This document shows positions 1 to 20,898 of a stretch of 64,000 nt of DNA, piece after piece. The notes under the pieces are model-generated. The model searched no databases, was not told the origin of the DNA, and saw only the letters and a list, made by a program, of their open reading frames with translations. A program made the translations under genes and the position numbers. Source of the DNA: a virus (Duplodnaviria; Caudoviricetes); IMG/VR virus record IMGVR_UViG_3300021978_000001, positions 128,001 to 192,000 of that record, one strand, 5' to 3'. Each line of letters opens with the position of its first letter. The stretch's first letter is position 1.

Positions 1-9
1 CCGATCCAG

Positions 10-86
10 AGCAGCCAGTGGGAATCGAACCCACAACCTCCTCGGGACCATCACCACAGATGTGGTGAAAATTGAGCCATGGCTGC
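10..86 (-). ncRNA. tRNA-like RNA without anticodon arm; 25-nt hairpin motif inserted in the D region
   Basis: Perfect acceptor stem GCAGCCA/TGGCTGC, T-arm GTGGG-TTCGATT-CCCAC, D 5' strand GCTC; centre replaced by TTCACCACATCTGTGGTGATGGTCC. Confidence 0.7.
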
Positions 87-165
87 TTGCTCGTGAAGGG
101 CGTTGCCGTTCACGAGAGACACAACTAGGTGACGTGGAGAGTTATTCCACACCACCACGCGCGTG

Positions 166-771
166 TCAAACGTTCTGTGGGAATTGAGCCAGGAGATCCT
201 GATCCTGACCTGCAACACGCTGAACAGGGATGGCCGTAAACGTGGACCGCAGGCTCGCCGCGTAAGGCGTCTCGACCAGGAATTGGTATGCAGGCGCACA
301 CTTGATCGACTTCTGATCGCCCACACGTTGGCATTCGATCACGATGTCCTTTCCGACGCGGTTGGTGACCGAGGCGACACGCTCGACCTTCCCGACCTGC
401 AACCCCGCACCCATCACGCGATCATCCGTCACGACCTTGCGCGCGATCTTGGTGACGTAGAACAACCCTTCAGCGTCGAGGAAGAGCGCCGCCATGCGGT
501 CCTCGAAAGCGCTCTTACAGGAACTCTTGCGGTGATGGGAAAACGCACATTCGAGCTTGCGCAAACCATACACCACACCAAAGCCATCACCTTGGTGCGC
601 GTACTTGACGAGGATGGCGCACGCTTCCTGAATAGCCTTGCGGGTCTCTCCCGCCGAAGAGGAGACCCACGCGTCTACTTGCGTGGCAAGGGTATGTGCC
701 TGGAGAAAGTAGGAGAGCGCGGTTTGGGGAACGATGATCGCGGACATGATAGACACCTCGTGGTCAGTCAA
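166..771 (-). CDS. hypothetical protein
   Basis: 201-aa ORF on the coding strand, downstream of a sigma70-like promoter. Confidence 0.7.
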   Translation of the reverse strand: MTDHEVSIMSAIIVPQTALSYFLQAHTLATQVDAWVSSSAGETRKAIQEACAILVKYAHQGDGFGVVYGLRKLECAFSHHRKSSCKSAFEDRMAALFLDAEGLFYVTKIARKVVTDDRVMGAGLQVGKVERVASVTNRVGKDIVIECQRVGDQKSIKCAPAYQFLVETPYAASLRSTFTAIPVQRVAGQDQDLLAQFPQNV

Positions 772-3809: not shown

Positions 3810-4325
3810 TTACGGGATCAACGTTACCGTAAGCTCATCCCGAAGCTCGAACGCGTTCGAGTCTGGAGAACCATCAGGCGTTACCTCCTCCACAGGTGTC
3901 AACACCACCGTATCGCGAGGCGAAAAGAACCTCGGATGGGACAGCGTATCGGTGTTCGCAGGGGTGCTCTCCAGGTACACGATCGGGAGGGAGTTGAACC
4001 CATAAAGCACGTTCAGATCTCCCTGAATCGTGATCGGGCCATCAGGGGAGTTATCCGCGAACAGGTTGAAGTTATCCGCCTTGTTGTCGAGCACCAGAAA
4101 CGAAGCCTCACCATTGACCAGGGTCTTCTGGTTGTCGATCAAGGTAAACGTCCCATCCTCGTCCGCGTCGAACAGGAGATCGAGATCTGCGCTGGTCAGC
4201 TCGACCACGGTCGTGTTGTCATCCGTGATCACGTTCCCGAGCGCATCGAGCGCGCGCACGATCACCGTGAAGGTCTCTCCTACTTGCACCGAGGAGGGCA
4301 CCAGGACTTGAAAGCTGTCAATCAT
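3810..4325 (-). CDS. Ig-like domain protein with conserved C-terminal HPRFF...PDGSPDSNAFELRDELTVT motif
   Basis: N-half aligns with the C-terminus of the 4670 protein; C-half aligns with the 4337 protein. Confidence 0.7.
   Translation of the reverse strand: MIDSFQVLVPSSVQVGETFTVIVRALDALGNVITDDNTTVVELTSADLDLLFDADEDGTFTLIDNQKTLVNGEASFLVLDNKADNFNLFADNSPDGPITIQGDLNVLYGFNSLPIVYLESTPANTDTLSHPRFFSPRDTVVLTPVEEVTPDGSPDSNAFELRDELTVTLIP
3813..3950. repeat. duplicated C-terminal coding module, copy 1 (copy 2 at 4340-4471)
   Basis: Near-identical peptide TLxHPRFFxxRDTVVxTPVxExTPDGSPDSNAFELRDELTVT; 28-nt identical DNA core catcccgaagctcgaacgcgttcgagtc. Confidence 0.85.
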
Positions 4326-4336
4326 GGTCGTGTCTC

Positions 4337-4660
4337 TTAGATGATGGTCACGGTGAGTTCATCCCGAAGCTCGAACGCGTTCGAGTCCGGGGAACCATCA
4401 GGCGTCGCTTCATCGACAGGCGTGAACACCACCGTATCTCTCGCCTCGAAGAACCTTGGGTGGTCGAGCGTCTCGGTGTCGATCGGCGTACTGTCCTCAT
4501 ACCGCAACGCGGCCCCTGCGACTCGCTGGAAGGTCCTGGAGTCTGTGGAGGGGGTACCCCCGGGGGCAACCGCTGCGGTGACCACCAGGTTGCCGTTGGA
4601 GGCATCACGCGCGCGAATCGTTACCTCCCCCTGAACCAATGTCTTTACATTATCAGGCAT
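4337..4660 (-). CDS. second half of a split Ig-like domain plus conserved C-terminal motif
   Basis: In frame with 4670-8494 after TGA-GAG-GTA-GTT; PDNVKTLVQG aligns with IDNQKTLVNG of the 3810 protein. Confidence 0.75.
   Translation of the reverse strand: MPDNVKTLVQGEVTIRARDASNGNLVVTAAVAPGGTPSTDSRTFQRVAGAALRYEDSTPIDTETLDHPRFFEARDTVVFTPVDEATPDGSPDSNAFELRDELTVTII
4340..4471. repeat. duplicated C-terminal coding module, copy 2
   Basis: See copy 1; same 16-bp palindrome CTCGAACGCGTTCGAG. Confidence 0.85.
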
Positions 4661-14828: not shown

Positions 14829-15271
14829 CAGGTAGTCTCCTCTGGGTTCTCCAACCCCAACATCCTCGCGAACAGCACCCAGGAGTTGTGATTCTTCTTA
14901 TGCTCCAAGATCATCTGCGCAAACTGTTGACGTCCATCTGCCGTGCGAAACTGCACCGCGCGTCCATGACCCCAAGCCTTGAGCACGGTGAGAGGCACCT
15001 GAAACGTCATCTCGTGATCTTGTGTATGAGAGAGCTGTACGTGAAAACCGATGCGACGTGCGCGCGGATCATCACGCGACTCGACACTCACAAAGTGCCC
15101 ATCCTGGCACGTATAGACGCCCTGGAACAACTCGTGCATCGCCTGACAAACGATAGTGACGCCTGATCCTTCACGATTCAGGGCAAAGTAATCCGGGTGC
15201 CAGCGATGCGGAGTGTTTTCGTGAGCATACTCTTCGGGGTAGCCCCACCGACGAAACGCGTTGATAAGCAT
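14828..15271 (-). CDS. hypothetical protein, MLINAF paralog 2
   Basis: Start placed at MLINAFRR (the longer ORF runs through tRNA-Cys). Confidence 0.75.
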   Translation of the reverse strand: MLINAFRRWGYPEEYAHENTPHRWHPDYFALNREGSGVTIVCQAMHELFQGVYTCQDGHFVSVESRDDPRARRIGFHVQLSHTQDHEMTFQVPLTVLKAWGHGRAVQFRTADGRQQFAQMILEHKKNHNSWVLFARMLGLENPEETT

Positions 15272-20775: not shown

Positions 20776-20806
20776 AACTATCCTCCGCGTTTCATGTGAT
20801 CAAAAA

Positions 20807-20898
20807 GAGCCGGGTGGGACTCGAACCCACGACATACCGCTTAAAAGGCGGATAGGACCATCCCCGCATGTGCGAGGAACAATAGCCCCACCCGGCAG
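20807..20898 (-). ncRNA. tRNA-Lys(TTT)-like RNA with 25-nt hairpin motif inserted in the D-loop
   Basis: Anticodon arm CCGC-CTTTTAA-GCGG, T-arm GTGGG-TTCGAGT-CCCAC, D-stem GGGC/GTCC around an expanded loop, imperfect acceptor stem. Confidence 0.7.

Follow-up and report, generated by a model that had tools for sequence, protein, structure and literature searches.

We analysed a window of 64,000 nucleotides of phage DNA, taken from IMG/VR record IMGVR_UViG_3300021978_000001 (437,490 bp, with direct terminal repeats; the window spans bases 128001-192000), and deal here with a 77-nt element resembling a transfer RNA (tRNA) gene at the window's left edge (positions 10-86, minus strand). ARAGORN lists 33 tRNA-type genes in the whole genome, every one on the minus strand; the window holds 20, the element being the leftmost. 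An initial annotation had described it as a tRNA shell without an anticodon, in which a hairpin is inserted. Alignments make it almost certain that this hairpin is a type I-E repeat of the CRISPR (short palindromic repeats, clustered and regularly interspaced) system carried by the same phage, and that it has replaced the core of a tRNA-Gly gene.

The tRNA-like element and its repeat

Read from 86 to 10, the element consists of an acceptor strand, UG, GCUC, AA, a perfect 7-bp hairpin with a 4-nt loop, 16 bases, a T arm, the other acceptor strand and a final U. The acceptor stem (GCAGCCA at 86-80 with TGGCTGC at 17-11) has seven Watson-Crick pairs, the T arm (GTGGG-TTCGATT-CCCAC at 34-18) has a TTCGA-type loop, and the discriminator is T at 10; bacterial tRNA-Gly likewise has discriminator U. 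The initial annotation had these outer helices and the enclosed hairpin right. The hairpin string that it quoted is window 69-45 on the minus strand, while the bases that differ from an intact tRNA (see below) are 71-45.

The two inner arms are missing. Only the 5′ strand of the D arm, GCTC, remains, and Infernal places a 36-nt insert there and aligns 0 nt to the anticodon arm. The element passes the Rfam tRNA model RF00005 marginally, at 30.0 bits against a gathering score of 29. Its minimum free energy fold has three helices (-32.8 kcal/mol, z = -2.5).

Three ways of reading the element as an ordinary tRNA were rejected. The ARAGORN call, tRNA-Gln(CUG), is a forced fit: it puts the anticodon at position 28, its D stem has just 3 bp and contains mismatches, its anticodon stem contains a C.A mismatch, and its fold is out of register with the perfect 7-bp hairpin. 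For a tRNA with an intron, ARAGORN in intron mode returned the identical forced call. If the hairpin were taken to present an 8-nt anticodon loop, position 33 would be C, and by comparison with the ortholog described below the anticodon loop has been lost.

The phage itself encodes Cas6e (PF08798, 94.2 bits, genome 17075-17713), Cas7e (170 bits) and Cse1 (55 bits). It encodes no Cas1; a CCA-adding enzyme (PF01743) was looked for among the phage proteins and is not encoded, and terminase Pfam probes had no match. Dozens of array repeats lie at a 61-nt period at genome 13-31 kb, 110 kb and 405-408 kb, all of them on the minus strand, which is also the strand of the element. Their consensus from 57 copies is GTGTTCCCCGCGCaTGCGGGGATGGTCC plus a variable 29th base, with a stem that pairs positions 5-11 with 16-22 around a 4-nt loop; the array spacers are 33 nt long.

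We built a covariance model of this repeat (R1) solely from the 57 array copies. It matches the element at window 72 to 44 over its full length (1-29) with 30.3 bits, at an E-value of 2e-7 for the window and 1.4e-6 for the whole genome; the top non-repeat match in the window has 13.7 bits. A sequence-only profile of the repeat scores the element at just 8.7 bits, so the match rests on paired changes, and it is mainly by paired changes that the element departs from the consensus. Pair 7:20 is A-U, where the arrays have C-G in 56 of the 57 copies and U-A in one, and pair 10:17 is A-U, as it is in 8/57 array repeats. The element's repeat stands alone rather than in an array, the next repeat being 287 nt downstream, against the 61-nt array period. 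Weak R1 matches also occur in coding regions, on the minus strand, at window 4391-4429 (GTGTTC...GATGGTTCC, 13.7 bits) and 1991-2016 (TTGCTCC...GGATGGTCCT, 12.1 bits); these are probably due to chance.

Further motifs surround the element (Table 1). The end of the promoter-like site is 69 nt upstream of the repeat; a generic scan misses this site because the final base of the second hexamer is C rather than T. The pattern TTGACA-N16-18-[ACT]ATAA[CT] occurs four times in the 437-kb genome where 0.2 copies are expected in shuffles, and all four are on the minus strand at 126.6-128.2 kb, inside the cluster of tRNA genes and repeats. With this promoter-like motif on one side and a terminator-like hairpin on the other, the hybrid looks like a transcription unit of its own.

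Table 1. Features of the element and its flanks. Positions are those of the window, except where marked L001, a stretch that reaches left of the window (L001:1230-1290 is genome about 127730-127790).
Feature	Position	Strand	Remarks
77-nt hybrid gene: tRNA-Gly(GCC) shell with a CRISPR repeat as its core	10-86	minus	Rfam tRNA 30.0 bits; four-way alignment
5′ shell GCAGCCATGGCTCAA: acceptor 5′ strand, U8/G9, D-stem 5′ strand, first D-loop bases	72-86	minus	identical in this phage, L208, L204 and the intact tRNA-Gly of L199
One full type I-E repeat unit, 29 positions	44-72	minus	stem 68-62 with 57-51, loop 61-58
Native tRNA-Gly 3′ half, the would-be guide	10-43	minus	anticodon-stem 3′ strand remnant, variable loop, T arm 34-18, acceptor 3′ strand 17-11, discriminator U at 10
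Would-be 5′ handle of a CRISPR RNA (crRNA), AUGGUCC, plus position 29 (C)	44-51	minus	array consensus matched at 7/7 conserved handle positions
Predicted Cas6e cleavage site, repeat G21 (window 52) / A22 (window 51)	51-52	minus	predicted from the cut sites of Cas6e in E. coli and Thermus
Promoter-like site: TTGACA, 17 nt, AATAAC	141-169	minus	the tRNA-like 5′ end follows after about 55 nt
Leader hairpin: 8-bp stem CTCGTGAA/TTCACGAG, 11-nt loop	90-116	minus	the tRNA-like 5′ end follows after 3 nt
Terminator-like hairpin GATCGGA/TCCGATC, then GAACTTTTTG	1-6, on to L001:1488 (L001 1506-1488)	minus	starts 3 nt after the element and runs 13 nt beyond the window's left edge
Other promoter-like motifs, TTGACA-N17/18-(A/C)ATAAC	L001 about 1455, 1376, 102 (genome 127956, 127876, 126602)	minus

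Intact and hybrid orthologs

For a 360-amino acid protein whose gene lies on the minus strand, 2.6 kb upstream of the element, relatives were found at 96, 83, 53, 52, 50, 49 and 45% identity. The one at 83% is on a contig (L199) that is colinear with this phage and has an intact tRNA-Gly(GCC) gene at the orthologous site, L199:3841-3913 (Rfam 67.2 bits at 3841-3912). The same TTGACA/AATAAC site, the leader hairpin (with one loop change) and the terminator-like hairpin flank that gene. The first 15 and last 35 bases of the element are identical to it, and the 22 nt between them have given way to 27 nt of repeat. The lost segment comprises the 3′ part of the D loop, the 3′ strand of the D stem, nt 26, the 5′ strand of the anticodon stem and the anticodon loop TTGCCAA, which confirms, now by an ortholog, the replacement proposed in the initial annotation. 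R1 finds no repeat in 11 kb of L199.

More distant relatives also have an intact tRNA-Gly gene at the syntenic place, followed by tRNA-Trp and tRNA-Val genes; the anticodon is GCC in L203 and UCC in L200-L202. Because the gene is intact both in L199 and in these distant relatives, a working tRNA-Gly is ancestral and the hybrid derived. The element is thus, by these alignments, a derived allele of the phage tRNA-Gly(GCC) gene, and as a hybrid it cannot decode. Neither tRNA-Gly(GCC) nor tRNA-Trp is in the present tRNA set of this phage (ARAGORN, whole genome).

The hybrid is not confined to one genome. Through cluster members of neighbouring proteins we reached the same hybrid at L208:2442-2515 and at L204:11257-11333 (with near-identical copies in L205-L207); it is common to three related phage genomes that come from different samples. 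The L208 and L204 hybrids share the rare A7:U20 pair, and a hybrid shared down to this pair implies one ancestral event. Relatives carry either an intact tRNA-Gly gene or a hybrid with the hairpin kept. The shell is therefore not a product of random decay, just as the initial annotation had held, and among the related phages examined we found no decayed homologous locus that lacks the hairpin.

The flanks are kept along with the element. Both promoter hexamers are present in L199, L204 and L208, with differences confined to the spacer between them, and the leader hairpin, unique within the genome, is the same in all three except for one loop base. The terminator stem and T run are kept in L199, and in L208 and L204 both persist although the loop has an insertion of ~28 nt. 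The leader hairpin had been pointed out initially as a companion of the hybrid; it is present, but it is not special to the hybrid, and since it also precedes the intact tRNA-Gly gene of L199 it belongs to the tRNA-Gly transcription unit.

Over 3-5 kb, identity to this phage is 89%, 88% and 87% in the comparison set of L199, L204 and L208, and 60-nt windows near the element are 91-100% identical among relatives. Six changes separate the three hybrids. Repeat position 3 differs once and the hairpin loop twice; in the handle, L204 has G for U23; and the anticodon-stem remnant has lost 3 nt in L208 and has a G-to-A change in L204. The acceptor stem, bases 8-14, CRISPR stem, T arm and discriminator, 53 positions in all, are free of changes, and all six are in the other 24. 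The consensus fold of the hybrids retains all three helices. The ARAGORN call does shift with the hairpin-loop bases, to Gln(UUG) in L208 and to an undetermined 2-base anticodon in L204.

Solitary repeats are found elsewhere in the tRNA regions too. Among 18 of them (from this phage, L204, L208 and L200), 98.4% of stem cells are paired and three pairs are changed on both sides, a result that 0/500 shuffles reach. When L001:400-1700 is compared with L199:3700-5100, five native patches within 1.1 kb are seen to have been replaced by CRISPR repeats, L199 being repeat-free there. Among the replaced patches are the cores of tRNA genes, a tRNA-like element and, downstream of tRNA-Trp, a conserved segment that contains GGGTTATC. 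A hybrid of the tRNA-Trp gene lies just left of the window at L001:1230-1290, with a shell AGAGCGC...GCGCTCT that encloses 14 nt of foreign sequence and a degenerate repeat. The tRNA-Trp(CCA) gene is intact in L199 and L204. No source of the foreign 14-18 nt ahead of the repeat was found in the sequence data examined.

Wider searches added no further loci. A similarity search of window 1-400 against GenBank phages gave no match. The exact 24-mer of T arm and acceptor strand had no match in viral contigs and 185,579 species genomes, so that no tRNA of a host or of another virus with this 3′ half turned up, and the junction pattern (handle, 12 N, T arm) had no hit in metagenome contigs. No related locus was reached in viral contigs through a 201-amino acid neighbour protein or Cas6e, and a word-index search for Cas6e homologs returned the query's own cluster alone. 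Repeat-pattern scans of viral contigs gave small unrelated contigs, and by tblastn no protein was in common with L007, L049, L050, L059 and L066.

A proposed guide RNA and competing explanations

The initial annotation saw in the shell a tRNA scaffold that would let host RNase P and 3′ trimming mature a non-translating RNA. Such a scaffold is plausible from the sequence, and the shell is non-decoding as supposed; what had been missed is that the hairpin is a type I-E repeat and so a Cas6e site, which changes the likely function. We favour, with a probability of roughly 40%, the reading that the hybrid is expressed as a small RNA, which tRNA enzymes trim and Cas6e cuts to yield a guide against the intact tRNA-Gly gene of sibling phages.

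An acceptor/T-arm minihelix suffices for RNase P and for 3′-end maturation, a property put to use in the Haloferax t-elements (PMC4326828), and the Cas6e enzymes of E. coli and Thermus cut at the 3′ base of the repeat stem. The unit would be transcribed as a short RNA, its minihelix would let host RNase P and 3′-end enzymes trim the transcript to about 77 nt, and the phage Cas6e would bind the repeat hairpin and, by analogy, cut after repeat G21. The 5′ product would be 35 nt long and end in the Cas6e-bound hairpin. The 3′ product, of 42 nt, would have the handle AUGGUCC(C) and then 34 nt of the native tRNA-Gly 3′ half, which is the anatomy of a crRNA minus the 3′ hairpin. Loaded in the phage Cascade, it would recognise the uninterrupted tRNA-Gly(GCC) gene of siblings, and we propose that its own locus would be spared because the repeat occupies the place of a protospacer-adjacent motif (PAM).

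The would-be guide together with position 29 is identical to the tRNA-Gly(GCC) gene of L199 at 35/35 positions, where it is preceded by CAA, or by AAC if base 29 is counted with the repeat. The only other match to it in its own genome is to 22 nt of the T arm of tRNA-Lys(CUU), with mismatches at the guide 5′ end. From the repeat end to the tRNA 3′ end there are 35 nt (34 beyond position 29), as against 33 nt in array spacers, the mature ends being predicted only. What the L208 deletion has taken away is one unit of a GAGGAG tandem beside the junction, and the guide stays colinear with the L199 target, now behind GAG.

The CRISPR system appears to be shared as well: Cas6e that is 93-100% identical is found, with flanking arrays, in the samples of L199, L204 and L208, although the cas and tRNA contigs are linked by sample only. 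The arrays that flank Cas6e in L209, L211 and L212 have no spacer match of at least 22 nt anywhere in the genome of this phage, though no Cas1 is encoded. An unusual route to a crRNA has precedents. In a type I-B system, RNase P and tRNase Z can release crRNAs from tRNA-like elements, and such crRNAs need neither Cas6 nor a 3′ handle to function (PMC4326828); type I-E can do without Cas6e if it is given crRNA of unit size (PMC4499155).

A number of points weigh against a guide. The would-be guide contains the stable T-arm hairpin and pairs with the 5′ piece, and it is followed by a terminator-like hairpin in place of a 3′ repeat hairpin, the hairpin through which a normal I-E Cascade holds Cas6e. 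Spacers of this phage and of the L209, L211 and L212 arrays were compared with the relatives' loci and the tRNA region and had no protospacer there, and so yielded no PAM for this system. For the solitary repeats nearby, the would-be protospacers in L199 have varying flanks (CAA/AAC, GTA/TAG and ATC). L204 has G for the invariant handle U23, and one base at the guide 5′ end unlike L199. The distance between repeat and tRNA 3′ end ranges over 15-49 nt in other repeat-in-tRNA hybrids, with no fixed spacer length.

The signs of constraint can also be read in another way. The clustering of changes outside the helices (P = 5.7e-4 against an even spread) was calculated with small numbers and with positional categories that were set after data inspection. 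Local identity is 91-100% in any case, so conservation of the shell is only moderately informative. Templated DNA repair can keep palindromes perfect without selection on RNA, and the paired changes are therefore not proof of such selection. In the tRNA-Trp hybrid of this phage the T arm is deleted and wobble pairs are gained, while the L208 version has its T arm intact; with the T arm lost, at least one sister element is decaying.

The strongest rival, a serious one that we rate a little below the guide, is a neutral scar without function. On this view a CRISPR array recombined with the tRNA-Gly gene, by a patch of gene conversion or illegitimately, and so destroyed it, for example in repair after CRISPR targeting by the phage itself or by a sibling phage. 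The intact shell would then go back to a clean and not very old event, with the palindrome kept by templated DNA repair, and it could partly reflect a fairly recent clean replacement under other readings too. The five repeat-for-patch replacements in 1.1 kb suggest recurrent recombination, perhaps of a kind that needs no function, which also counts against a guide. The tRNA-Trp hybrid has 14-18 nt of foreign, spacer-like sequence before its repeat and, in this phage, is without its T arm. On the right, the junction of the tRNA-Gly hybrid is exactly at the start of a protospacer behind AAC, as with an array spacer serving as repair template; local identity is high anyway. A scar without function fits less well with six changes that avoid all 53 stem and shell positions despite 11-13% divergence of the flanks, with the upkeep of promoter hexamers, leader hairpin and terminator stem, and with the changes on both sides of pairs that keep solitary repeat hairpins intact. 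Nor would one expect exactly one whole repeat with no remnant of a spacer, or a tRNA region unmatched by the array spacers of this phage and of the readable arrays of relatives.

It is plausible, and in keeping with the clean right junction, that a tRNA gene damaged by CRISPR was repaired from an array spacer and the adjoining repeat was copied over the PAM side; the donor spacer was not found in the arrays read.

We regard as unlikely a second rival, in which the element makes a Racr-like small RNA that binds Cas6e and is not a guide, so that it titrates or regulates Cas proteins of the phage, of a co-infecting sibling or of a host I-E system. The hairpin is the best-kept part across hybrids and solitary copies, whereas the handle and the bases downstream vary, and the element has its own promoter-like site, as do viral solitary repeat units (PMC10651486). 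The repeat family ending in GGGGATGGTCC also occurs in bacterial arrays, which makes a host system with this repeat conceivable. As the phage carries matching cas genes, a decoy would hit its own system as well. The handle, moreover, is fully intact in this phage and L208, and the preference for tRNA genes is left unexplained.

A more far-reaching version of the guide reading, to which we assign little probability, has the repeat act as a homing element that turns the adjoining native sequence into a guide against the uninterrupted allele. Cascade-Cas3 would damage the intact allele of a co-infecting sibling, which would be repaired from the immune hybrid, the repeat being copied in; in this way repeats would spread through conserved loci such as tRNA genes without Cas1-Cas2. 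Homing would account for the five replacements in 1.1 kb, for the near-identical flanks of the hybrids in genomes otherwise 11-13% diverged, and for the stepwise states among the phages: no repeat in L199; repeats at Gly and elsewhere, though not at Trp, in L204; and repeats at both Gly and Trp in L208 and this phage.

Finally, that the element is a working if odd tRNA is hardly credible: ARAGORN does list tRNA-Gln(CUG) and the Rfam score is barely over gathering, but the D and anticodon stems of that call are mismatched as noted above, position 37 is a pyrimidine, the call varies with the hairpin-loop bases in L208 and L204, and the ortholog shows that the tRNA-Gly anticodon loop was removed.

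Related systems and further repeat copies

Solitary viral CRISPR repeats and tRNA-like processing signals were each known separately. In the literature searched, no natural CRISPR repeat inside a tRNA gene is described.

The closest parallels are Racr and the viral solitary repeat units (Camara-Wilpert et al. 2023, PMC10651486), which likewise have a single phage repeat outside arrays, a promoter-like site and probably a small RNA bound by Cas6. They differ from the element in that here the cognate Cas6e and Cascade are encoded by the phage, the repeat matches the phage's own arrays, there is a tRNA shell, and native sequence matching siblings follows the handle. CRISPR inhibition is a feature of Racr, and the word 'tRNA' is absent from the main text of that paper. 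Viral mini-arrays are also minimal viral CRISPR elements with a guide that matches close relatives, suggesting conflict between viruses. They have two repeats and an acquired spacer and use host Cas proteins; the element has one repeat and no acquired spacer, its guide would be its own adjacent gene, and its 3′ end would come from tRNA processing.

On the side of RNA processing, the t-elements of the Haloferax icrRNA constructs (Maier et al. 2015, PMC4326828) are tRNA-like, lack an anticodon arm and carry RNase P and tRNase Z signals that release a crRNA. Those are man-made, archaeal and of type I-B, with t-elements flanking the crRNA, whereas the present element is natural and of type I-E, with the repeat inside the tRNA shell and the tRNA 3′ half as the would-be guide. 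Unit-sized crRNAs of the E. coli I-E system (Semenova et al. 2015, PMC4499155) are a parallel in that interference with them does not need Cas6e processing, but they keep the 3′ repeat hairpin as a terminator and the proposed RNA would be without one. The tRNA pseudogenes of phage tRNA clusters have lost the anticodon arm and cannot decode either; unlike them, the element is a clean swap for a defined functional motif, occurs in three diverged genomes, and has later changes that avoid the remaining helices.

If the RNA is made and cut as proposed, engineered tRNA-guide fusions would have in the element a natural counterpart. It would also show a way for a CRISPR system that lacks Cas1-Cas2 to gain guides, by moving repeats instead of taking up spacers, and would point to a conflict among sibling phages over tRNA genes; hybrid and intact alleles are both in public data, circulating among sibling phages. 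If the hybrid is only a scar, it records recombination between an array and tRNA genes that cost the phage its tRNA-Gly(GCC) and tRNA-Trp.

Repeats have entered other tRNA genes as well. A second repeat-in-tRNA hybrid is at window 20806-20882 on the minus strand (R1 40.9 bits at 20882-20854; Rfam tRNA 30.5 bits). Its D arm alone is replaced. The repeat is followed by an anticodon arm, whose loop CTTTTAA holds the Lys anticodon UUU, and then by a T arm, the 3′ strand of an acceptor stem and a T run. How the acceptor pairs is ambiguous, and a hairpin, GTGCCTC/GAGGCAC, lies just upstream. The tRNA-Gly(UCC) gene, intact in this phage and L199, is a repeat hybrid at L204:15006-15034 and L208:6135-6163, and these two carry different repeat variants, the T arm being 17 nt away in the one and 3 nt in the other. 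In L200, a 373-kb relative whose neighbour protein is 50% identical, a solitary repeat with the same handle, ATTCCCCACGCACATGGGGATGGTCCC, is found at 15164-15192 between tRNA-Val and tRNA-Ala, amid T-arm-like remnants.

Two minor observations concern the tRNA set and the repeat family. A tRNA with anticodon CUA (amber suppressor type) lies at genome 120038-120110 and is conserved in L200 (18658-18730), L202 and L203 (20010-20083). Repeats ending in GGGGATGGTCC form long arrays in Kiritimatiellia, Lentisphaerae, Akkermansia/Verrucomicrobiota, Terriglobia, Deinococcus and Corynebacterium (L080, L095, L111, L134, L135, L150 and others), and these bacterial arrays may bear on the host of the phage or on the source of its CRISPR system.

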